A stretch of DNA of 64,000 nt from a virus (taxonomy: Duplodnaviria; Caudoviricetes). Positions within the stretch are counted from its first letter, which is position 1; every line of letters starts with the position of its first letter. The notes beneath the pieces were generated by a model. It saw only the letters and a program-made list of their open reading frames with translations, searched no databases and was not told the DNA's origin. Below, one piece after another: positions 18,019-28,991 of the stretch. The stretch lies in IMG/VR virus record IMGVR_UViG_3300049988_000245, positions 160,001-224,000 of that record; one strand, given 5' to 3'. The position numbers and the translations under genes are program-made.

Positions 18019-18639
18019 TCAAACAAACGTCATGGTAAACGGGTCGAACGTCTTTCGGGGCGTCAGCGGGGTCTTCGAGATTTCAACGAAGATACTACGC
18101 AGCGTCATGAGGGTTTCTCCCAGGAGGTTCTGCCCCCGCCAGTTCGCCTTGTTCTCGATTTTCGGGTCCGACCAATCCAGGCCGACGCCCCAGATTCGAT
18201 CATAGCTTGCGCCCTCGACGAGGAGACGATGCTCCGTATTCATGAGCGTCGCCAAGGCAGAGGCGTTCTGGGAGAACTTGTAATAATTCCCCGTTAAAAC
18301 CGCTGGGAGACATTCGGCCTCCCACTTGGCTTGATCGAACGGCATCACGTCGCGCCCGGCCGCTTTCTGCGCACGAGGGACGTCCTGAAACTTGCCCCGC
18401 TTTCCGCCCTCGAAATACGCGGTGTTCCCCTCGGGCGGTTGGATCGTCAGGATGCGTTTGAGTGTGTCCACGTCGCCGAACAGATGCGCTTTACGCGCCA
18501 TCATGTACTGCTCGGCGCAGTTGAACTCCATCTCGGGCATATCCGGGGTGAGGCGTCCTGTGAACAGGGTCGCGGACCATTGCGAGAATACTCCGCCGAG
18601 GAAATAGACGGCGTCCTCGGTGATACGTTGGCTGGTCAT
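18019..18639 (-). CDS. NADAR family (YbiA-like) N-glycosidase
   Basis: FSQW, FNCAEQYMMARKA.LFGD, QKAAGR.V..FD..KW, GNYYKFSQN, LVEGASYDRIWGVGL, WRGQNLLGETLM. Confidence 0.93.
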   Translation of the reverse strand: MTSQRITEDAVYFLGGVFSQWSATLFTGRLTPDMPEMEFNCAEQYMMARKAHLFGDVDTLKRILTIQPPEGNTAYFEGGKRGKFQDVPRAQKAAGRDVMPFDQAKWEAECLPAVLTGNYYKFSQNASALATLMNTEHRLLVEGASYDRIWGVGLDWSDPKIENKANWRGQNLLGETLMTLRSIFVEISKTPLTPRKTFDPFTMTFV

Positions 18640-18648
18640 GTGAGCGTC

Positions 18649-18924
18649 CTATGAGCCGCGCGCCGCGACGAGCGCCTTGAAGGCGGTCTCGCGCTGATCG
18701 AGCAGCAGGCTGGTGGCGACTTCCGCTCCGCGCAGCTTGCGCCGGGTCGCGAAGAACGTTTCCACGTAGGGCTGGTAGGCTTCGGGATTGTCCGGCGCGA
18801 CGTTGCGCAGTTCGTGGAGCGCCTTATTGTGAGCGTCCCGAATCGTCTCCACCTTGCGCCACTGCTTCTGGTACGCCTTGTTGGCGTCGTCGTAGGCTTT
18901 CTGCTCAGTCTCGTACACGTTCAT
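18649..18924 (-). CDS. Hypothetical coiled-coil protein
   Basis: MNVYETEQK start overlapping the upstream stop. Confidence 0.55.
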   Translation of the reverse strand: MNVYETEQKAYDDANKAYQKQWRKVETIRDAHNKALHELRNVAPDNPEAYQPYVETFFATRRKLRGAEVATSLLLDQRETAFKALVAARGS

Positions 18925-19160
18925 GATTCGGGGCTTTCGTCGGAGGGGACTTCCCATCCGGCGAGCCCGTACAGGATAGTCAGGTGCTCGGGGCTCAGGT
19001 CTTCCGCGACGAACTCCAACGGTCCATCGCTGTCCTTCTTCAGCTTGATCTTGTTGGTCTTGCACAGGGGTAGAATGGTCCCTGGCGACAGGATCACGTG
19101 AGACCCGTCCTGGCGAGCCAGACGGTCCTCAGCGGCGTCCTGAACGATGTAGAGGGTCAT
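18921..19160 (-). CDS. Hypothetical protein
   Basis: ATGA-type overlaps on both sides. Confidence 0.6.
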   Translation of the reverse strand: MTLYIVQDAAEDRLARQDGSHVILSPGTILPLCKTNKIKLKKDSDGPLEFVAEDLSPEHLTILYGLAGWEVPSDESPES

Positions 19161-19321
19161 TCGGATTCTCGTTTCTTCTTGTGGGCCTCCGCCTGCTCGT
19201 ACAGGTCTCCGAACAGCACGCCCATCACGATCATGCAGACGGATAGGAACATGCCCTTGAACGACTGGTCGTAAGCCAGGATCGCGAGGGCAAGAATCTG
19301 AACCATTCGGGTGTCGAGCAT
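19157..19321 (-). CDS. Small membrane protein
   Basis: MLDTRMVQILALAILAY..; two hydrophobic stretches; GAGGG RBS. Confidence 0.5.
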   Translation of the reverse strand: MLDTRMVQILALAILAYDQSFKGMFLSVCMIVMGVLFGDLYEQAEAHKKKRESE

Positions 19322-19331
19322 GGGATTCCCC

Positions 19332-20051
19332 TCAGAGGGTGCCTTCGACGGCAACCAGACGATCGAGGCCGACTGCGACCTCCAGCACGCGAACATCCTC
19401 GACCGGAAAGTCCGTGCGCGTCGAGATCGAGCACATCTCTTTCCACTTCTCCGTCGATCCCGGATGCGTGTAAGGGACCTCGACATCGTTGGTGATCTCG
19501 GAATAGGCGGGGAGCCGATCGCTCGGGATGATTCGCGTCTCACGAACACCCGTGATCTTGCGAATCGCCTCAGCGATCACCGGCTCGACTGCCGCACGGT
19601 AGTCGGCCTTCGAGTTGGCCTTGTACGCGCACTGGAATTCGAGTTGGTAGAATTCGTTGTAGCGCAGATTCGAGGCGGTCGCACCATCCATGGCTTCGAC
19701 CCGGAAGCTCTTACCCGCCTGCCACACGCACACGGGATACCGGACGAGGCCGCGATCGAGCAACGCCTTCAGGTAGAGGTAGGAGGATGCGGTGGTCTCC
19801 GCCCGCAACGCTGCCTGATCCTCGCCCAGCTTGGCGTTGAGCAGGAAGATGTCCGAGTCGTCATAGGCGGACGAGATGTACTGGCGCGGCGTCAGGAGCG
19901 GACCCTCGACCCGGTGGAACGACCAAGCGGAGTTCAGCCCGGTCAGGGCGCTGGAGAGCGCCCCGACTATCCGGGTGATTGCCTGCTCGCGAATCATGAT
20001 CTCGCGTTCGGTCCAGAAGGGCAGGCCGCCCTTGCCGTAGAGTGCGTCCAC
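19332..20051 (-). CDS. Minimal class II aminoacyl-tRNA synthetase-like catalytic core (GlyRS/Pro/Thr/Ser subclass IIa-like), no anticodon-binding domain
   Basis: GLPFW, VEGPLLTP, LRAETTAS, motif 2 QAGKSFRVE..LRYNEFYQLEFQ, EMCSISTR, motif 3 EVAVGLDRLV; 239 aa. Confidence 0.8.
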   Translation of the reverse strand: MDALYGKGGLPFWTEREIMIREQAITRIVGALSSALTGLNSAWSFHRVEGPLLTPRQYISSAYDDSDIFLLNAKLGEDQAALRAETTASSYLYLKALLDRGLVRYPVCVWQAGKSFRVEAMDGATASNLRYNEFYQLEFQCAYKANSKADYRAAVEPVIAEAIRKITGVRETRIIPSDRLPAYSEITNDVEVPYTHPGSTEKWKEMCSISTRTDFPVEDVRVLEVAVGLDRLVAVEGTL

Positions 20052-20095
20052 TGTCGGGTTCCTCGAAATTGGTACGACGAATTTGTAGCACCAAT

Positions 20096-20443
20096 TCAGG
20101 CGACGATGCTACCCGCCCGCGTGGCCATATCCGCATAGACGGAGATCGGGTGCTTGGCCTGGAAGTGGATGTCCCGCTCCACCGGTAGTCCCACGGCGCC
20201 GTGAATCGATTCGAGTTCCGAGAGAAGAACCGAACCAAGCTCCGGGCACCCCAGGCCGAGATCGCACAGACCGAATAGGATGTCCGGTTCCTGCTCGTCC
20301 ATCTCGGTGATCAGCCACGTGGCAGCGCCGTCCGGGGTAAAGAACTTCACCACGGGCTTGTGATCGTCCTCGCCCCCGGACTTCTCGGAGGCTCGGCCGT
20401 TCGCGAGCAGGGCTGCACGAATCTCTTCGGTGATCAGGATCAT
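20096..20443 (-). CDS. DUF2958 family protein
   Basis: DHKPVVKFFTPDGAATWLITE.D..PDILFGLCDLGLGCPELGSV.LSEL....G..GLPVERD.HF. Confidence 0.9.
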   Translation of the reverse strand: MILITEEIRAALLANGRASEKSGGEDDHKPVVKFFTPDGAATWLITEMDEQEPDILFGLCDLGLGCPELGSVLLSELESIHGAVGLPVERDIHFQAKHPISVYADMATRAGSIVA

Positions 20444-21246
20444 CGGAATTTTCTCCCCATCATCATGAGCGGGTGGTGGAAGTGGGGGTTACCACGACGG
20501 TGCATGTCCATGGCCATCATGAGTGCCATCTCGGGGTTGTTGCGAAACGCCCAGGGATTCTGGCGCATTAGTTTGCGCGTTTCGCGCTGATGCTCGGTCT
20601 CCGTGACGATGTTGGAGCCGGGCGGCACCGGAATGGCACCGGATTTCAGACTGACGTAGCCGATGAACCGGAACGTGCGGGGCTTGAACTCCTTCACCCG
20701 AACCTTGGTCTTGAACGGCCGGTTGATCGGGACGATCTTGTCTTCCGCCTTGATCCACTGCTGTATATTCCACGTGTACGCGCCGCTCCGACACGTTGCA
20801 CGGATGTACATCTTCGGCTCGACATGCGTGATCGTGTACCGCTCTTGAGGAATGTGATCGGAAACGAAAAAGCAGTCCCCAACCTTCGGAAGCTTCGGCT
20901 CGATCGGCTCCAGCAGGGTGCGGTCGTACAGCAGCGACACGGGGAGTTTCACCTCGACGCCCGTGATGATGGCCTCGAACAGCACCTGTGGGCGGTTATT
21001 GAGGAGTTTCCCGGACGACCTGACATCCAAGTAGCGGCCCGCGACGACCAGCGACTTCTTGCCCATCTGCTCGACGATCGCCTCGACGAGATCACCACGC
21101 GTCGCGCCGCGACCGTAGTACGCCTTGATTTCGGGTGCGCAGATTTCCGCGAACCGCTGCATGTTGACGATCCGATACACCGTACCGGGCACGCCCTCGT
21201 GGGGCGCCATGAGGGCGGCCTTCTCCGCCTTTTTGAGCCTTGCCAT
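20440..21246 (-). CDS. Hypothetical protein
   Basis: Long ORF in an operon, with overlap to the next gene. Confidence 0.65.
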   Translation of the reverse strand: MARLKKAEKAALMAPHEGVPGTVYRIVNMQRFAEICAPEIKAYYGRGATRGDLVEAIVEQMGKKSLVVAGRYLDVRSSGKLLNNRPQVLFEAIITGVEVKLPVSLLYDRTLLEPIEPKLPKVGDCFFVSDHIPQERYTITHVEPKMYIRATCRSGAYTWNIQQWIKAEDKIVPINRPFKTKVRVKEFKPRTFRFIGYVSLKSGAIPVPPGSNIVTETEHQRETRKLMRQNPWAFRNNPEMALMMAMDMHRRGNPHFHHPLMMMGRKFR

Positions 21247-21269
21247 GAGAATCGCCCCCGCTCGGTGTG

Positions 21270-21761
21270 TTAGATGAGAAGGCCCGCCAGGGTGTGGAAA
21301 TTCTTGGCGACCCGCTTCTGCTGATCGACCATGTCCTTGCCCACCGAGACTCGCGTCTGTTCGTGCGCGTAGTCACGGGCCATCTGCCAGAGCAGATCGA
21401 GCTTCGGATGATCGGCCAGACGAAGCTCCTCGGCCAACGCCGCCTTGAGCCGAGCGTTGCCGTCATCGATCAGGCGATTGTTCTCCTCGTGCTCAGCCGC
21501 CACCTCGGCGCGCTCCGAATTGTACGCGGAGAGCACCAGCGGCAGAGCCAGAGCTTCGTCCGGGGTCAGTTCAACCGCCGGTTTGAGAAGAAGCTCCGGC
21601 ACGACCGGGTCAGTTGCCCTCAGGATGACCGGGGCGAATTCGCCCCGGCGAACGCGGTCTTCGACCGTCAGGTGTGCCGGAATCGTTTCGATTTCGAAAT
21701 CATCCGAACCCCATCCGGCTACGATGGAAAGACCTATCATGCTCAATCCGATACCGTGCAT
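21270..21761 (-). CDS. Hypothetical protein (tandem paralogue of 21772-22146)
   Basis: GAGG RBS; HPKLDLLWQMARDYAH motif. Confidence 0.65.
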   Translation of the reverse strand: MHGIGLSMIGLSIVAGWGSDDFEIETIPAHLTVEDRVRRGEFAPVILRATDPVVPELLLKPAVELTPDEALALPLVLSAYNSERAEVAAEHEENNRLIDDGNARLKAALAEELRLADHPKLDLLWQMARDYAHEQTRVSVGKDMVDQQKRVAKNFHTLAGLLI

Positions 21762-21771
21762 CGCAGTTTCC

Positions 21772-22146
21772 TCACTTCACGAGTTCGACAAGATCGTCGT
21801 AGTAGCTGGCGATTTCTTCCTTGCCCGCGCTGTGGCCGAGACTGTATGCCTTGCTGTAGAGAAGGTCGGCCTTCGGGTGTCCGGTCATCCCGTGGTACTC
21901 GTGGAGCGCATCCACGAAGGCGTTCTCGCAGGCACTGGCCTGGGTCTGGTAGACGGTCTTGGCCTCCTCGTACGCAGCCTTGTCCGCCGCATACTGCGCG
22001 CGAACCTCCGGGATGCTGGCGATCTCGGCGTCGGAAAGCTCCTTAGCGGACTTGCGGAGGATGGCGGGCTCCTTGACCCGGAACGGGTAGGGAGCGGTCG
22101 GCTTGAACTCGTCGTTGCGGATGCGGGTGGTGATGTCGTCGCTCAT
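21772..22146 (-). CDS. Hypothetical protein
   Basis: AAGGGAG RBS; HPKADLLYSKAYSLGH motif. Confidence 0.7.
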   Translation of the reverse strand: MSDDITTRIRNDEFKPTAPYPFRVKEPAILRKSAKELSDAEIASIPEVRAQYAADKAAYEEAKTVYQTQASACENAFVDALHEYHGMTGHPKADLLYSKAYSLGHSAGKEEIASYYDDLVELVK

Positions 22147-22172
22147 GTCCGTGCTCCCTTGCTGATTCATCG

Positions 22173-22200
22173 AATATACACTGATTCGAGAGGCCGTCAA
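22173..22200 (-). promoter_or_regulatory. sigma70-like promoter, 16-nt spacer
   Basis: TTGACG-N16-TATATT heading the leftward operon. Confidence 0.6.
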
Positions 22201-22282
22201 CTCGATTTCGTTACACGAAAATAGTTAATTTCCATTCATCCTGCTAGTCTGACTACATTCATTAAAGTGATTGTAGATTCAG

Positions 22283-23509
22283 ATGTTTTATCCGTTTCCT
22301 GCCAGCTTAGGGCTGGGTGAAGTCCGTCAGGCCATCAAGGTTGCCAACGAACGTCTTGGTCGAGTCTGCTTTATCGAGGCAGACCGTGGGGATCACGTGA
22401 TCTTCAACTATGTTCTGTCGTTCAACGATACCTTCCCCCAGCCGGACACGGAAGACGAGGCAGTGAATCGCGAGTATGCGATCCTGCGTGAATGCCGTGG
22501 TCTTGTGTTCGACAAGACCTATGGGGTGGTTCTTTCGCGTCGCTATCACAAGTTTTTCAACATCAATGAGAAGAGCTTCACCCAATCCCATCTGATCGAC
22601 TGGACCCAGCCGCATGTGATCTTGGAAAAACTCGACGGCTCGATGATCGCCCCCTACCCGCACTCGGGCCGTCCCGGTGGGATCGCCTGGGGGACCAAGA
22701 TGGGAGCCACCGACGTATCGCTGCCGGTCGAAGAGTTCGTCGAGAAGAATCCGCAGTACCGGACGCTGTTCTTCGAATTGTACGAGCGTGGGTTCACCCC
22801 GCTGTTCGAATGGTGCTCGCGCAAGCAGAAGATCGTCATCGACTATAAGACGGATCGCCTCGTGTTGACCGGGGTCCGTTCGATCTATTCGGGCGAGTAC
22901 GCCTCGCATGAGGCCCTGGTGGGGTTTGGCCTCACCTACGGGGTCGAGGTGGTGCGCGCGCTTCCCGGTTCGGTCGAGAACATCGAACAATTCATGGCCG
23001 AAGCTTATGCGGTCGAGGATGAAGAGGGATACATCATCCGGTTCGAGAACGGCCACATGCTGAAGATCAAGGGTCTTTGGTACTGCCAGATTCATCGGAC
23101 CAAGGACAATCTGACCCGCGAGAAAGACGTGTGGCGGATGATTTTGGACGACAATCTAGATGATGTGAAGCCGTTCATGGACCCGGACGATCGGGCTCGT
23201 GTGGATGCGTATGTTGAGGCGTTCGAATCCCGCATCGCCGAGCGCGGTGCCTTCCTCCAGCTTCACGTGGACGTCGCCAAGGCGGTCGGCAACGACAAGA
23301 AGGCATTCGCGAGTAGCCTGAAGGATATCCATCCGATGGATCGCGGGTTGCTGTTCTCCATCTGGGATGGTCATGATCCGAAGGATTGCGTCCGTGAACT
23401 CCTGAAGAAGAACTCTTACACCGGAACCAAAATTGAAAATGTACGTCGAATGATCAATGGTCTACGTTGGGATGATTACCGCGATCATAACGTGATTCTC
23501 GACGCTTAA
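22283..23509 (+). CDS. T4 Rnl1/RnlA-like RNA ligase
   Basis: RECRGLVFD, RRYHKFFNINE, motif I EKLDGSMI, LFEW, EGYIIRF, MLKIK..WY..IH. Confidence 0.9.
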   Translation: MFYPFPASLGLGEVRQAIKVANERLGRVCFIEADRGDHVIFNYVLSFNDTFPQPDTEDEAVNREYAILRECRGLVFDKTYGVVLSRRYHKFFNINEKSFTQSHLIDWTQPHVILEKLDGSMIAPYPHSGRPGGIAWGTKMGATDVSLPVEEFVEKNPQYRTLFFELYERGFTPLFEWCSRKQKIVIDYKTDRLVLTGVRSIYSGEYASHEALVGFGLTYGVEVVRALPGSVENIEQFMAEAYAVEDEEGYIIRFENGHMLKIKGLWYCQIHRTKDNLTREKDVWRMILDDNLDDVKPFMDPDDRARVDAYVEAFESRIAERGAFLQLHVDVAKAVGNDKKAFASSLKDIHPMDRGLLFSIWDGHDPKDCVRELLKKNSYTGTKIENVRRMINGLRWDDYRDHNVILDA

Positions 23510-23526
23510 TATTTTTGGAGTATTTG

Positions 23527-23658
23527 ATGATTCAAGATTTGAAGGTTCTCGCCCTTGGCGTTGTTGTGGGTTGCCTCGCTCTGGCGGCGTGTTTTGCCAC
23601 GTACACGATGACGACCCCGGATGGTGCCGAGCGCGCCGCCTACGTCGAGGTCCCGTGA
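23527..23658 (+). CDS. Small membrane peptide (43 aa)
   Basis: Hand-translated MIQDLKVLALGVVVGCLALAACFATY..; GGAG RBS; TGATG overlap with agmatinase. Confidence 0.55.
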   Translation: MIQDLKVLALGVVVGCLALAACFATYTMTTPDGAERAAYVEVP

Positions 23659-24557
23659 TGGAAAAGCCGTTCCAGGGCCTTTCGACGTTCCTGAAGTCGC
23701 CCGTCAACGACGCCTCGCGCAAGATCGGCGTTATGGGTTTGCCGTTTGACGGCGCCACCTCGTACCGGCCCGGTGCGCGGTTCGCACCGAACGCGATCCG
23801 TGAAGCCTCCATGATGCTCACCGATGGCGGCCACCCGACGCTGAAGGTCGATCCATGCCAGTTCGTCACCGATCTCGGCGACGTGCCGGTGTCGAACCTT
23901 AATGTCGCAAAGAGCCTAGAGCAGATCGAGGAAGCGATTCATGCGAGCCCGTTCTACCGGGACCCGTCGAAGCGTCTTATGTTCATGGGCGGAGACCACA
24001 CGGTAACCACGGGAATCCTGCGCGCCATTGCGCCGGATCACGAAGACCTGCAAGTTCTCCATCTCGACGCCCATTGCGACACCTGGGCGGACCATTTCGG
24101 TGATCCGCTCGGCCACGGCACCTGGGTGCGCAATGTGGTTGAGGAGAAGCTGGTTAAGCCGGAGAACATCCTTCAGGTCGGCATTCGCTCGCCCGTGGAC
24201 CCGGAGACCCGCAACTGGCTTGGCGAACGCCATGGCCGGGTCATCTCGGCGCGTTCAGCCCTCAAGATGGGCGCCGATGTGATCGTTCAGAACCAGATTC
24301 CGAGGGACAAGCCCCTCTACATTAGCCTGGACATCGACTGCCTCGACCCCGCCTACGCCCCCGGTACGGGAACCCCTGAGATCGCCGGGCTGACCCCGCA
24401 TTTCGTCCTCGATATGCTGGAGAGCTTGAAGCACCACAACATTGTCGGGATGGACCTTGTTGAGGTCAATCCGATGTTCGATCCCACCAAGATCACCGCG
24501 CTCGCGGGTGCCACGTTCATGTGGACCGTGGCCAGCATGATGGCGTGGCTTCCGTGA
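23658..24557 (+). CDS. speB: Agmatinase (ureohydrolase family)
   Basis: GLPFDGATSYRPGARFAP..IR, GGDH, HLDAHCD, SLDIDCLDPAYAPGTGTPE, DLVEVNP. Confidence 0.92.
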   Translation: MEKPFQGLSTFLKSPVNDASRKIGVMGLPFDGATSYRPGARFAPNAIREASMMLTDGGHPTLKVDPCQFVTDLGDVPVSNLNVAKSLEQIEEAIHASPFYRDPSKRLMFMGGDHTVTTGILRAIAPDHEDLQVLHLDAHCDTWADHFGDPLGHGTWVRNVVEEKLVKPENILQVGIRSPVDPETRNWLGERHGRVISARSALKMGADVIVQNQIPRDKPLYISLDIDCLDPAYAPGTGTPEIAGLTPHFVLDMLESLKHHNIVGMDLVEVNPMFDPTKITALAGATFMWTVASMMAWLP

Positions 24558-25258
24558 AGCTCGCCTACATCAGCGACCTTCATTTGGAAAATCGTCCCGG
24601 TGTGGCCATCCCCCTTCTAGAAGGGAAGTGGCATCGTCTCATCGAAATCGGCTTCCCCGCGCAGATTGAGGCAGACGTGATCGTGATTGCCGGGGACGTG
24701 CACAAGAACCCCGCGTTCCGCCGTGTTGTCTACAAGGGTATCTCAGACACCTATGGGGTGCCGGTGATCGCGGTCGATGGGAACCACGACGTGTATGGTC
24801 GGGACTTCCCGGCCAATCACGCCGGGGTGGCCACGGAGATCAAAGGGGTGCGGTTCGCCGTCACCACGTTGTGGACCCATTTGGGCGTGCTGGATCAGTC
24901 GATCGCTCACGAGTTCATGGATTTTCGGCAGATCAGCGCGCTCGACCCATTGACGTGGAATCAGACTCACGCGATGCAGTTGGAGTTTCTGCGCCAGTCC
25001 GGCGCCGATGTGTTCGTGACCCACCACACGCCGTCGAGCCGATCCTCCCATCCACGATTTGCGAGCAATCCGTTTAACGGTTTCTTTACCAACGATCTCG
25101 ATCTAAGCCAATTTGGTGGACTGAAATTGTGGGTCCATGGGCATGTGCACGATGAATGGGATTACATCGAGCAGGGAATCAGGGTAGTTTGTAATCCTCT
25201 GGGATACCCCATGGAGCTTCATCGACGTGGAGCACAGATCAAAATCATAGAGGTGTAA
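24554..25258 (+). CDS. Calcineurin-like metallophosphoesterase
   Basis: ISDLHLE, IAGD, DGNHD, VTHHTP, WVHGHVH, NPLGYP. Confidence 0.9.
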   Translation: MKLAYISDLHLENRPGVAIPLLEGKWHRLIEIGFPAQIEADVIVIAGDVHKNPAFRRVVYKGISDTYGVPVIAVDGNHDVYGRDFPANHAGVATEIKGVRFAVTTLWTHLGVLDQSIAHEFMDFRQISALDPLTWNQTHAMQLEFLRQSGADVFVTHHTPSSRSSHPRFASNPFNGFFTNDLDLSQFGGLKLWVHGHVHDEWDYIEQGIRVVCNPLGYPMELHRRGAQIKIIEV

Positions 25259-25995
25259 TGCGTAGCTTGATGATCTTCTCCGGAGCGGGTATTTCGGCCG
25301 ACTCTGGCATTCGAACGTTTCGCGACTCTGATGGTCTCTGGGAGAACCATTCGATCGAGCAGGTTTGCACGGCATCGACGTGGAAGCGGAATCCAGAGAT
25401 GGTGCACGCGTTCTACAACGCCCGCCGCCTCGAACTGGTCGCCTGCGAGCCCAACCCGGCCCACCATATGGTGCGGCGGATTCAGCAGCGCTACCCGGAT
25501 GCGTCGATCATCACGCAGAACGTCGATGACTTGTTCGAGAAGGCCGGGTGCGAGAACGTCGTCCACGTCCACGGTCGGCTTACCGACATGAAGTGCGAAC
25601 ACTGCGCACGCAAGTTCGACATCGGCAACCGAGCCTGGGACTACCAGACGGAGTGCTGCCAGTGCGGGTGCCGCAAGGGTGTGCGTCCGGGCATCGTGAT
25701 GTTCGGCGACGACGCCCCGCTGTACTCGGTTATGTACCGGCGGATCGAGCAGGTGAAGCATACCACGGGGGTGCTCGTGGTGATCGGTACGTCCGGACAG
25801 GTGGTTCCGATCGGCGAGATGGCCGAAGACCTTCCCGGCATGACGATCCTCTCGAATCTTGAGACCGCCAAACAGCCGGATGCGCCCTACATCCCCTACA
25901 CGGCAGACTACCAGTTCAAGAAGGTTCTTCACGGTCGCGCCTCGGAGATGGCTCCGGCGATCGAGGAAGCCATTATCACGGCGATGGAGACCTGA
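25258..25995 (+). CDS. Sir2/CobB-like NAD-dependent deacylase
   Basis: FSGAGISADSGIRTFRD..GLW, PNPAH, TQNVDDL.E.AG, HVHG, CxxC..CxC zinc site, RPGIVMFG, IGTS. Confidence 0.93.
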   Translation: MRSLMIFSGAGISADSGIRTFRDSDGLWENHSIEQVCTASTWKRNPEMVHAFYNARRLELVACEPNPAHHMVRRIQQRYPDASIITQNVDDLFEKAGCENVVHVHGRLTDMKCEHCARKFDIGNRAWDYQTECCQCGCRKGVRPGIVMFGDDAPLYSVMYRRIEQVKHTTGVLVVIGTSGQVVPIGEMAEDLPGMTILSNLETAKQPDAPYIPYTADYQFKKVLHGRASEMAPAIEEAIITAMET

Positions 25996-25998
25996 CAT

Positions 25999-26328
25999 AT
26001 GGCAGAAGGTTATCTCGGACAGTTTCCCGTCGATGTTCGGGAGACGATGTTCGCCGACTTCTCGAACGCCGATTGGGCGATGTACTTCATCGAGCGATAC
26101 GGCGGCATCGACGGGGCTAACCATAAGGATTGGGTCCTCGATCAGGTTTCGCGCATCCTCAAGGGGACGCCCGTGATCGTCGAGGAGGCCCGGTGGGAGG
26201 GCGGACTCAAGGAATTCCGTGTCCGCACGGGTGACCCGTCCCAGCGTTACCTCGCCTGGGTCGTTGAGATTAAGAATGGCGAGGACGGGCCGGACACGTA
26301 CGATTACGAGGAAGGGACACCCCCATGA
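25999..26328 (+). CDS. Conserved phage hypothetical protein
   Basis: YGGIDG..HK.WVLDQV.RIL..Y..WV...K.GEDGP.TY.Y.EG.PP pattern. Confidence 0.7.
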   Translation: MAEGYLGQFPVDVRETMFADFSNADWAMYFIERYGGIDGANHKDWVLDQVSRILKGTPVIVEEARWEGGLKEFRVRTGDPSQRYLAWVVEIKNGEDGPDTYDYEEGTPP

Positions 26329-26606
26329 TGCCACCTGTCACCAAGATACTCTGGGACACCGCCGTGGTGTTCTTCCGATTCGTCGGGGTCTTCATCGAAT
26401 GGCTGTTCGATTGGGGGTTCGAGCGCAAGGAATTCTATGTCCTGCGTGGGGACCAGCGTACCCTGGTGTGTTGGTGCACGGAGAACGGCCCGCCCCCGAG
26501 AATGCCAGAGCGGTTGAAGCCGCTCAAGATCGTCCTCCCCGGCTGGAGCGCGTTCACGCGGCTTCCCCACATCCGGGAGTACGCGGTCCGCTACAAGTGG
26601 CTGTGA
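26325..26606 (+). CDS. Hypothetical protein
   Basis: ATGA overlap with the preceding gene. Confidence 0.55.
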   Translation: MMPPVTKILWDTAVVFFRFVGVFIEWLFDWGFERKEFYVLRGDQRTLVCWCTENGPPPRMPERLKPLKIVLPGWSAFTRLPHIREYAVRYKWL

Positions 26607-26767
26607 GGGAAACCCGCGCGAGCCGGACCCTACACGTCGCGGTCTGGTCCCTTGGTATGTTCCTGGCCGGTTGGGTCACGCACGATGCATTCGTCGCGGG
26701 AAAGCCGATCGGCCTCGACTTGCTGCTGTCGGGAATCATCTGGCTCGGCATCCTGGGCAACACATGA
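26603..26767 (+). CDS. Small two-TM membrane protein
   Basis: GTGA overlap; two hydrophobic segments. Confidence 0.45.
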   Translation: MRETRASRTLHVAVWSLGMFLAGWVTHDAFVAGKPIGLDLLLSGIIWLGILGNT

Positions 26768-26976
26768 TCTACATCCATCTGCTCCCCACGCGCCTTGCCC
26801 CGCTGGCCAACGATTTCCGCCGGGAAATCTCCGCTCATCATAAGGACATCGATCCATACGATGAATACGAATGGTTCAGCCTCGCCTTCGGATTCGCTCT
26901 CGCAAAAGGGATCAGCCCGGAGGATGCGGACGCGTTCGCGATCTACGCTCGACAGCACGATTTCTTTCTAATATAG
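26764..26976 (+). CDS. Hypothetical protein
   Basis: ATGA overlap with the preceding gene. Confidence 0.55.
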   Translation: MIYIHLLPTRLAPLANDFRREISAHHKDIDPYDEYEWFSLAFGFALAKGISPEDADAFAIYARQHDFFLI

Positions 26977-27031
26977 ACAATTTGTGTTGCATCGCGATAA
27001 CCTCTTGGCATTGCTACAGAGGTTATTTGTG

Positions 27032-27448
27032 ATGAACATTTTTGAGGTTCTGTTTAGTTCGCAGGGCCGTATGGGACGACTTGCGTTCCTTGGTTATTCC
27101 GTACTCAACATTCTGGTGATGATCGCTCTGGCCATCGCCTCAGCCGCGCTCTGGCAGGGCGGCGCAGGACCACACGCGATCCTGGGTATTCTGATCGCGC
27201 TCGCGGCGATCATCGCTATCATGTGGTCGGGAATCGCACTGACGATCAAGCGATTGCACGATATGAACTTCACCGGGCTACATGTGATTTGGATTCTTGG
27301 CCTGGAGTTTGCCTCCAAGGGGATGGGACCGGCGACGGATTCACCAGCCTTGGCGGCACTTCTGAGCGTGATCACGGCGGCGATCGGCGTCGGCATGCTG
27401 GTGGTGCCCGGATCACCCGGCGAGAACGCCTACGGCGCCCCGACCTGA
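27032..27448 (+). CDS. DUF805 membrane protein
   Basis: LFSSQGRMGR..F, L.IKRLHDMN.TG, PGSPGENAYGAP. Confidence 0.9.
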   Translation: MNIFEVLFSSQGRMGRLAFLGYSVLNILVMIALAIASAALWQGGAGPHAILGILIALAAIIAIMWSGIALTIKRLHDMNFTGLHVIWILGLEFASKGMGPATDSPALAALLSVITAAIGVGMLVVPGSPGENAYGAPT

Positions 27449-27453
27449 ACGAG

Positions 27454-27477
27454 AAAACCCGCCTTTCGGCGGGTTTT
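27454..27477. terminator. Bidirectional intrinsic terminator
   Basis: AAAACCCGCC-tttc-GGCGGGTTTT between convergent genes. Confidence 0.9.
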
Positions 27478-27479
27478 TG

Positions 27480-28373
27480 TCATTTGCTGTAACGGTCTCG
27501 GCTCTTGACGTTGTTGATCAACACCTTGGCCTTGATCTGCGGGCGCTCCTTCAGGTGAAGGTCGAGCAGCGCGTCTGGGTCGGCCTTGGCCAAGAATGCC
27601 ATGACTTCGCCCTTGCGCTTGTCCGCAACCGATCCGGGGATGGTCTGGCCGATATTCTTGAAATCGAAACCCGGAAGGATGGCGACCTTCTGCGCGGCAT
27701 GCTTGGTCGTGACCACGTTGTAGCAAACCTGTCCGACCACCTCGGTGAACAGACACGGGGCGGCGACCTTGGGGGCCAGCACGATATGACGGGCGGCGGT
27801 GGAAAGTTCACCGCGTGCGGTGAAGCCGTGGCCCTGATTGCCGCCCTTGGTCATCGAGACCTGTGGGAGAACCTTGGCAAGCTCCTGCGGAGTCGGCGGC
27901 TTGCCCTTGGCGATCTCCGGTGACACCTGCATGAGATTCTTCTTGAACACCGCGACAAGTTTGCCGTGCGTGTAGAAATCGTGGATCGAGCGGAAGAGCA
28001 CGTTCTGCTGCGGCGTGAACACGGGGTGGTCCGACGCGCCTGACCAGATGAACAGGCGACGATTGAATGCGATGTCGTACAGCATGTAGCGGAGCATCAT
28101 CTGGGGGTCATGACCGCCCTCGGTGTACGGATCATCCTCGGTGTATTCGAGGCGAATACCATCACCGACGATTCGGGGAAGTAGGGTCTCTACCGTATGG
28201 GTGATCATGGCGATCCAGTGCTTGTCCGCGCTGGGATCGTGCAGCGGGGCTGCTTCGTATGCCTCGGCGACGGCGACCGCGAACGCGGCGTGCTCGGGGA
28301 GGCTGTGGAGGGCGACGCCTTCTTCAAGAATGGCGGCACCTTCGAGGAGGTTGATTGCATGACGAATATCCAT
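27480..28373 (-). CDS. Putative late/virion protein with FRxxHDxxxH..GE motif domain
   Basis: Starts MDIRHAINLLE; DDPY, HPVF..N.LFRSIHDFYTHG..GHGF..RGE..TEVVGQ..QKV.IL; TAAATA 5 nt upstream. Confidence 0.7.
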   Translation of the reverse strand: MDIRHAINLLEGAAILEEGVALHSLPEHAAFAVAVAEAYEAAPLHDPSADKHWIAMITHTVETLLPRIVGDGIRLEYTEDDPYTEGGHDPQMMLRYMLYDIAFNRRLFIWSGASDHPVFTPQQNVLFRSIHDFYTHGKLVAVFKKNLMQVSPEIAKGKPPTPQELAKVLPQVSMTKGGNQGHGFTARGELSTAARHIVLAPKVAAPCLFTEVVGQVCYNVVTTKHAAQKVAILPGFDFKNIGQTIPGSVADKRKGEVMAFLAKADPDALLDLHLKERPQIKAKVLINNVKSRDRYSK

Positions 28374-28378
28374 GCACC

Positions 28379-28384
28379 TATTTA
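28379..28384 (-). promoter_or_regulatory. TAAATA late-type promoter, leaderless spacing
   Basis: 5 nt to ATG 28373. Confidence 0.55.
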
Positions 28385-28445
28385 GAAAGTGAGAATATTC
28401 CCCGGTAGAGTTATGGTCGGTTATTGTTTAACCGAGACCGTTTTC

Positions 28446-28991
28446 ATGCAAACACTTATTGTGAATCTCTTCGGAGCACCTTGTGCGGGTAAGAGCACGA
28501 TCCGAGCCGACGTTTTTCGGTGCCTGAAGCAGAAGGGAATCAACTGCGAAGAGGTCTACGAGGTCGCCAAGAAGCTCTCATGGACCAAGCGAATGGGTGA
28601 GTTGGCCGTCCAGCCGTACATTTTCGGTAAGCAACTCAGAGATATGGAAATCCTCGACGGTAAGGTCGATGTAATTATTACGGATTCACCCCTTGTTCTG
28701 TGTGAGTTCTACAATCTTCTTTACTGTGGTGATCGATACCCGAAGGCATTCGGCACCCTCGTGATCGAGCAGTTCAAGGCTATGGGCGGGGTGAACTTTT
28801 ACATCAATCGCGTGGGCGAGTACCGCGCCGAAGGCCGGAATCAGACCGAGGCGGAGGCGAACGAGATCGGCGTTAAGCTTAAAAATCTGTTGGACGAAAA
28901 TTCCATTGACTTCGCCGTCCTAGATGGCGATACATTTGCTGGTCCCTACATCGCCGATCTGGTGATCTCCATTTTGTCCAATCGAGGTTAA
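28446..28991 (+). CDS. AAA_28/NadR-like P-loop nucleotide kinase
   Basis: VNLFGAPCAGKST, EVAK, IITDSPL, R..GRNQTE.EA. Confidence 0.85.
   Translation: MQTLIVNLFGAPCAGKSTIRADVFRCLKQKGINCEEVYEVAKKLSWTKRMGELAVQPYIFGKQLRDMEILDGKVDVIITDSPLVLCEFYNLLYCGDRYPKAFGTLVIEQFKAMGGVNFYINRVGEYRAEGRNQTEAEANEIGVKLKNLLDENSIDFAVLDGDTFAGPYIADLVISILSNRG

Follow-up and report, generated by a model that had tools for sequence, protein, structure and literature searches.

A stand-alone glycyl-tRNA synthetase-like catalytic core in a jumbo phage and its leader-bearing relatives in alphaproteobacteria

The closest described relatives of the protein reported here are the alpha2 glycyl-tRNA synthetases (GlyRS-1; PDB 5z5e, 8t5n, 1ati/1b76, 2pme; PRK04173, TIGR00389), whose glycine-recognition set consists of Glu245, Glu296, Glu522, Arg410, Tyr386 and "Ser (or Ala)" 524 (PMC4938167). 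The amino acid:[carrier protein] ligases (Bll0957, PDB 3mey) also have a stand-alone class II core able to activate a small amino acid, and are of methanogen-type SerRS origin with a Zn site and a carrier-protein gene adjacent (described in part in PMC9437257). EpmA/PoxA/GenX (PDB 3a5y) likewise has a class II core without an anticodon domain; it is derived from LysRS (class IIb) and acts on EF-P. On the side of gene control, leader-peptide attenuators of synthetase genes are known, of which E. coli pheM-pheST is an example.

The gene studied here lies in a stretch of 64,000 nucleotides (the window) of a virus record of 265,895 bp, which is 57% complete and has jumbo-phage gene content. Its product, called mini-GlyRS here together with its relatives, shares with alpha2 GlyRS the class IIa fold, motifs 1-3, an LRPET-like motif, the three-glutamate glycine pit and the equivalents of Arg410 and Tyr386, and it may form a homodimer. 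It differs in being about half as long, in having neither the HGTP domain nor insertion 1, in three small pocket substitutions and in being mostly viral. Unlike the Bll0957-type ligases it has a GlyRS-type three-Glu pocket and no linked carrier-protein gene, and unlike EpmA it belongs to class IIa. The obligate co-occurrence with a CUA tRNA of shared identity that marks a PylRS-like synthetase and its amber tRNA is not seen for mini-GlyRS. The bacterial orthologues resemble leader-peptide attenuators in that a short uORF, with cognate codons at a constant spacing, precedes a conserved hairpin, but their leader is of a glycine type, has no U-tract terminator, matches no Rfam family and is absent from the phage copy and its contig. 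A literature search covering little of the subscription journals found no paper on the mini-GlyRS family or on this leader.

The protein in the window and its family

The frame is intact from its GTG start to its TGA stop, and its features are collected in Table 1. An initial annotation made from the letters alone had described a class II core of 239 residues with motif 2, motif 3 and LRAETT. All of these are present and align with alpha2 GlyRS, as does motif 1. The protein was said to end six residues after motif 3; it ends 7 residues after VGLDRL and 8 after R231. Alignment with two GlyRS-1 proteins bears out the reported lack of a C-terminal anticodon domain and adds that insertion 1 is missing too, its site between motifs 1 and 2 being taken by a short hairpin.

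Table 1. Features of the mini-GlyRS gene, in window positions
Feature	Position	Strand	Basis
Stand-alone GlyRS-1-like class IIa catalytic core, 239 aa	19332..20051	minus	ORF, profile search, fold
Ribosome-binding site GAGGA, 8 nt 5' of GTG	20060..20064	minus	sequence
Motif 1 region, residues ~10-58, predicted dimer interface	19878..20024	minus	model, alignment
LRAETT (residues 82-87); E85 = human GlyRS Glu245, amino-group ligand	19791..19808	minus	alignment
Motif 2 (Q111-Q140): R117 (catalytic), E119, R130, F134, E138 (= Glu296)	19632..19721	minus	alignment
Amino-acid loop, Y183 (= Tyr386 by alignment)	19500..19523	minus	alignment
E205 (ATP/Mg ligand by homology) to R212 (= Arg410), D214	19410..19439	minus	alignment
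Motif 3 (E224-R231): E224 (= Glu522), A226 (Ser/Ala524 position), R231	19359..19382	minus	alignment

The annotation had left the choice between GlyRS, SerRS and EpmA to profile or structure comparison, and both put GlyRS first. The profile search of the PDB returned GlyRS with E=9e-14, and the predicted structure (pLDDT 95) superposes by VIA-align on N. equitans GlyRS with Z=21.9 and an rmsd of 2.4 Å over 225 residues, as against Z=19.1 for Bll0957 and a weaker 13.9 for GenX. The alpha2-type GlyRS comes top in every comparison (PDB profile, NCBIfam, Foldseek and VIA-align). Judged by sequence and fold, what the phage protein retains of an alpha2-type GlyRS is the catalytic core and nothing more. 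It is nevertheless outside the GlyRS-1 family by domain content, and against the NCBIfam model PRK04173 it misses the curated-family score, with 42.9 bits for a cut-off of 312.

The active site can be read across from bacterial GlyRS-1 by alignment. E85, E138, E224, R212 and Y183 match Glu245, Glu296, Glu522, Arg410 and Tyr386, and are 97-100% conserved among 101 representatives of at most 50% identity, in which position 226 (the Ser/Ala524 equivalent) is Ala in 81% and Ser in 15%. For the ATP ligands R117, E119, R130, F134, E205 and R231, conservation in the same set is 89-100%. The catalytic arginines, whose misalignment the annotation had named as a possible sign of an inactive protein, are in register and nearly invariant (R117 in 99 and R231 in 98 of the 101). 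Given this conserved pocket and the conserved ATP ligands, it is very likely that the enzyme works and that it is adapted to glycine or some other very small amino acid. On the pocket strands the family has its own changes relative to GlyRS, namely G to S208, H/A to S210 and A to T87. The cysteines are not family-wide (C141 50%, C207 39%, C108 68%), and the SerRS2-type Zn site (Cys, Glu, Cys) is absent.

A homodimer formed through motif 1 was modelled with a score of 0.93, the best control reaching 0.00, at a pLDDT of at least 92 and with runs that share at least 95% of contacts. The mark used for this score is attained by 20 of 30 solved homodimers and by 1 of 23 single chains, and given the solved class II dimers the score of the model may reflect likeness only.

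The family has 532 near-length relatives. A profile search gave 878 representatives, the full-length ones mostly of 210-260 aa, and the tail beyond the motif-3 arginine has a median of 11 residues and a maximum of 47 in the 101 representatives. With such numbers and so short a median tail the mini-GlyRS family is not a fragment. The gene is present in 20 annotated phage records, labelled "hypothetical" or as a generic synthetase; its ESM Atlas clusters are 86-97% viral, and PHROGs holds no family for it. The ESM Atlas also contains several more mostly viral, nameless clusters of even shorter class II cores of 186-207 aa. A few members of 306-352 aa (P0141, P0148, P0154, P0169 and P0179) carry a long insertion at the position of GlyRS insertion 1.

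Bacterial orthologues and their Arg-Gly leader

Orthologues occur in Rhizobium, Devosia, Phenylobacterium and kin, in about half of the Rhizobium genomes and in less than 1% of the other alphaproteobacteria sampled. The copies that bear a leader make up a single clade, which lies within the phage sequences and is separate from the clade of the window protein; the window protein is 43% identical to them, and the two clades agree at 28 of 29 pocket and motif positions. In bacteria the gene is a one-gene unit: behind a sigma70-like promoter the uORF opens with an ATG about 8 nt past the -10 box, and a hairpin, the gene and a terminator follow. The unit behaves as a discrete module, since the contig of another strain has different DNA in place of exactly the promoter-leader-gene-terminator unit (L141:5757-6791). 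Bacteria with the gene retain the unrelated glyQS, and a full GlyRS-1 is absent from them. On a separate branch of the tree, two AT-rich alphaproteobacteria with genomes of about 1 Mb carry the gene with no leader (L191, L192), and one copy is a decay variant with an internal in-frame TAG (G1040:C6:107258-107971).

The leader consists of a leaderless uORF of 28-33 codons followed by a hairpin. Seven codons before the uORF stop, CGA-GGT (Arg-Gly) is found in 74 of 76 leader-type loci, the two exceptions being CGC-GGT and TGA-GGT (the latter at L142:5860-5900, where CGA is changed to TGA), and all three stop codons are in use across the 76. Pairing in the hairpin amounts to 95%, compensatory changes are seen in 5 of its 9 pairs, and no other register does as well; conservation of CGAGGT may in part be base pairing. 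Glycine makes up 30% of the last 12 uORF codons and is depleted upstream of them (5 codons where 15 are expected; z -3.6 over 13 clusters). Proline is depleted upstream as well, and arginine is not. A search with the leader model found one copy per genome, always at the mini-GlyRS gene, and in five genomes the leader preceded no other gene. Of 61 Rhizobium genomes, 27 have the leader together with the intact gene, and in a further one the leader stands before a truncated gene (L200). Within the leader-bearing clade the leader arose once.

What the codons mean becomes clearer when the leader is compared to the upstream regions of other synthetase genes. In all 5 alphaproteobacteria examined (L330-L334), ileS is preceded by a short uORF with CGA-ATT (Arg-Ile) about 160-205 nt upstream of ileS, and a hairpin begins within about 5 nt of it, which is the geometry of the mini-GlyRS leader. 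The ileS leader is a predicted attenuator, and we found no paper on it. From this shared geometry we take CGA to be a generic pause element, with the next codon naming the sensed tRNA, in this case that for glycine. An arginine-sensing leader, an idea prompted by the fixed CGA and by the trifolitoxin paper, is less favoured, since the CGA is invariant in the ileS leaders too and arginine is frequent among the upstream codons. The bacterial leader thus appears to be a switch that would sense a shortage of glycine-loaded tRNA. No such leader precedes glyQ, and a crude scan, in which several loci were read on the wrong strand, gave no clear leader upstream of thrS and most tyrS genes. About 190 nt upstream of the second Rhizobium tyrS, a promoter-like site is followed by a 16-codon uORF with two tandem Tyr codons (L353).

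tRNA genes near the phage copies and the favored reading

A tRNA gene lies within 1 kb of mini-GlyRS at 23 of 59 loci, as compared to 5 of 54 at a distance of 5-6 kb. In a sliding-gene test on 14 tRNA arrays, tRNA-Gly comes out nearest (7 arrays, P=0.004), followed by tRNA-Arg (P=0.013) and tRNA-Ser (P=0.02); corrected for 15 tests, the P for tRNA-Gly is about 0.07. Since the arrays were picked for a nearby tRNA and 15 tests were made, we treat the proximity of tRNA-Gly as suggestive only. An enrichment of Gly among all nearby tRNAs lost its robustness under clustering. In some phage clades CysRS, ThrRS and peptidyl-tRNA hydrolase genes adjoin mini-GlyRS. One phage ThrRS-like gene two genes upstream (L007:4078-5544) encodes 488 aa and apparently lacks the N-terminal editing domain.

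Taken together, the bare GlyRS core and a bacterial leader that appears to sense a shortage of Gly-tRNA make it probable that glycine is loaded onto tRNA without the anticodon being read. We therefore regard mini-GlyRS as probably a minimal, homodimeric and anticodon-blind back-up glycine:tRNA-Gly ligase. Anticodon-blind charging was one of the two options that the initial annotation had offered, and it is now the favored one, the amino acid being narrowed to glycine by the pocket, the Arg-Gly leader and the proximity of tRNA-Gly. Recognition by the acceptor end only is plausible given that U73 and G71 are unique to tRNA-Gly and specify its recognition by TacT (PMC9976931). The same source lists the anticodon bases C35/C36 as identity elements for known GlyRSs, which counts against an anticodon-blind reading, as do the loss of insertion 1 and the fact that the leader belongs to a clade other than that of the window. 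What we observe directly is the anatomy, its conservation, the lack of partners in the records searched and the leader with its geometry; each catalytic step, the acceptor and the extension of the bacterial function to the phage copy are what we infer.

In such a scheme the enzyme would be a spare source of Gly-tRNA-Gly when charged tRNA-Gly is short, independent of the host's unrelated alpha2beta2 GlyRS. In phages it would be a free-standing mobile gene, often placed amid tRNA and synthetase genes and supplied without a leader. Alphaproteobacteria would have captured one lineage and put it behind a leader that pauses ribosomes and has a Gly codon at its control position, so that the enzyme could be turned on upon Gly-tRNA scarcity. 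The bacterial enzyme could not borrow domains from a homologue, given that only the unrelated glyQS and no full GlyRS-1 is present. More tentatively, and with rather less confidence, we suggest that a natural synthetase of about 235 residues may need nothing but the acceptor end to charge tRNA-Gly in vivo, that jumbo phages may use it to keep Gly-tRNA flowing under attack on the host GlyRS or tRNA-Gly, and that soil alphaproteobacteria may have domesticated it under an undescribed glycine-codon leader switch.

If charging of tRNA-Gly is true, mini-GlyRS would be a living example of the minimal catalytic-core synthetases that have so far mostly been engineered, and the "operational RNA code", in which identity comes from the acceptor stem alone, could be tested with a natural enzyme. 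It would also be a third structural route to Gly-tRNA, would suggest a phage counter-measure to defences directed at tRNAs or synthetases, and could serve code engineering as a small enzyme tolerant of the anticodon. A first functional clue to this widespread, unassigned family comes from the Arg-Gly leader, which can be tested genetically in culturable Rhizobium.

The annotation had linked its option to the charging of nicked or repaired tRNAs by way of RNA ligase and CCA genes nearby. The RNA ligase is indeed 2.2 kb away, on the opposite strand, while the CCA/poly(A)-polymerase-family gene is at a distance of 20 kb. The ligase is near the gene in only a few relatives' loci, and the idea is unsupported because neither gene is a conserved neighbour across the family.

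Other explanations

The enzyme could instead ligate glycine or alanine to something other than a tRNA, in the manner of EpmA or the carrier ligases. Its acceptor might be a host protein, the phosphopantetheine of a carrier protein, an RNA end or a small molecule. As in known paralogues (PMC9437257), neither of the domains that contact tRNA has been retained, Bll0957 matches with Z=19.1, and the protein is acidic (pI 5.3, with no basic appendage), which GlyRS cores are likewise. Beyond single-clade synteny, however, there is no conserved neighbour gene even among relatives of 80-88% identity, and the carrier-protein domain PF00550 is found in 3 of 30 phage records, always far from mini-GlyRS. 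The initial annotation had entertained this option, and the protein is neither EpmA-like nor equipped with a Zn-type pocket or a carrier-protein neighbour. The Gly-type pause leader and the location in tRNA arrays point to translation, and we consider a non-tRNA acceptor unlikely.

A tRNA ligase of relaxed or different specificity would put Gly, Ala or Ser on several tRNAs, including the phage amber (CUA) tRNA, tRNA-Arg or damaged tRNAs, and lead to readthrough or tolerated mistranslation. The Ala at the Ser524 position and the family-specific Ser/Thr changes in the pocket are consistent with this, as are a lone CUA tRNA just upstream of mini-GlyRS in one phage clade, lone Arg tRNAs in another and two CUA tRNAs among the seven tRNAs of the present record. 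A dedicated amber tRNA was rejected all the same, as Caulobacter phages BL47 and CcrBL9 have no CUA match and the CUA tRNAs have no acceptor-stem identity in common, with G73 or A73 in place of U73. The CUA linkage is the synteny of a single clade, and the leader specifies Gly; we consider the relaxed enzyme unlikely as well. The bacterial CUA-pattern matches resemble ordinary Arg(UCU) tRNAs, which the pattern also catches, and for this reason its tallies are not used as counts. In the closest megaphage clade the lone tRNA-Arg genes (UCU/CCU) follow mini-GlyRS at a distance of 0.6-1 kb (L005, L006, L008, L186, L187).

The alpha2 GlyRS is a known maker of Ap4A, and an enzyme that stops at adenylation, producing glycyl-AMP or Ap4A for signalling or as a metabolite and passing nothing on to tRNA, would agree with the complete set of first-step residues and the loss of the tRNA-binding domains. 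It leaves the Gly-codon control leader and the preference for tRNA arrays unexplained, and is very unlikely.

Partner genes bear on the last alternative, in which mini-GlyRS is the catalytic half of a split synthetase whose tRNA-binding subunit, of unrelated fold, is encoded separately by phage or host. No partner frame that would restore a normal synthetase, as the annotation had envisaged, was found among longer proteins (a weak search for a fused anticodon domain, which did not return even full GlyRS), in the contig or in 30 gene-bearing phage records. In those records the HGTP domain lies solely inside frames of 375-665 aa and never stands alone, and it is absent from 17 of the 24 near-complete genomes. 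A non-homologous helper would escape such searches and the contig is 57% complete, but neither the HGTP domain nor insertion 1 is encoded anywhere in it and in bacteria the gene stands as a module by itself, between a promoter and a terminator of its own, which makes a split synthetase highly improbable. The annotation had also pointed to phage tRNAs or an anticodon-binding frame elsewhere in the genome; no such frame was found in the contig, and the seven tRNAs are there, none of them for Gly in this 57% complete record.

Supply of Gly-tRNA for the Mom DNA modification was also set aside, Mom being present in 1 of the 30 phage records and absent from this contig. Around mini-GlyRS, window positions 18019-28991 hold NADAR, T4-type RNA ligase, arginase-family, metallophosphoesterase, Sir2 and P-loop kinase genes, and a block similar to this cluster is retained in another locus (L183). 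The two amber tRNAs of the record are in tandem outside the window (G000:C1:59598-59752); in each of them the base of the anticodon stem has a C-U mismatch, and the genome still seems to read TAG as stop. The record also contains a full-length SerRS-like gene (G000:C1:30460-31803) and a two-piece tmRNA (G000:C1:91133-91526), a type known from alphaproteobacteria and thus a hint at the host.
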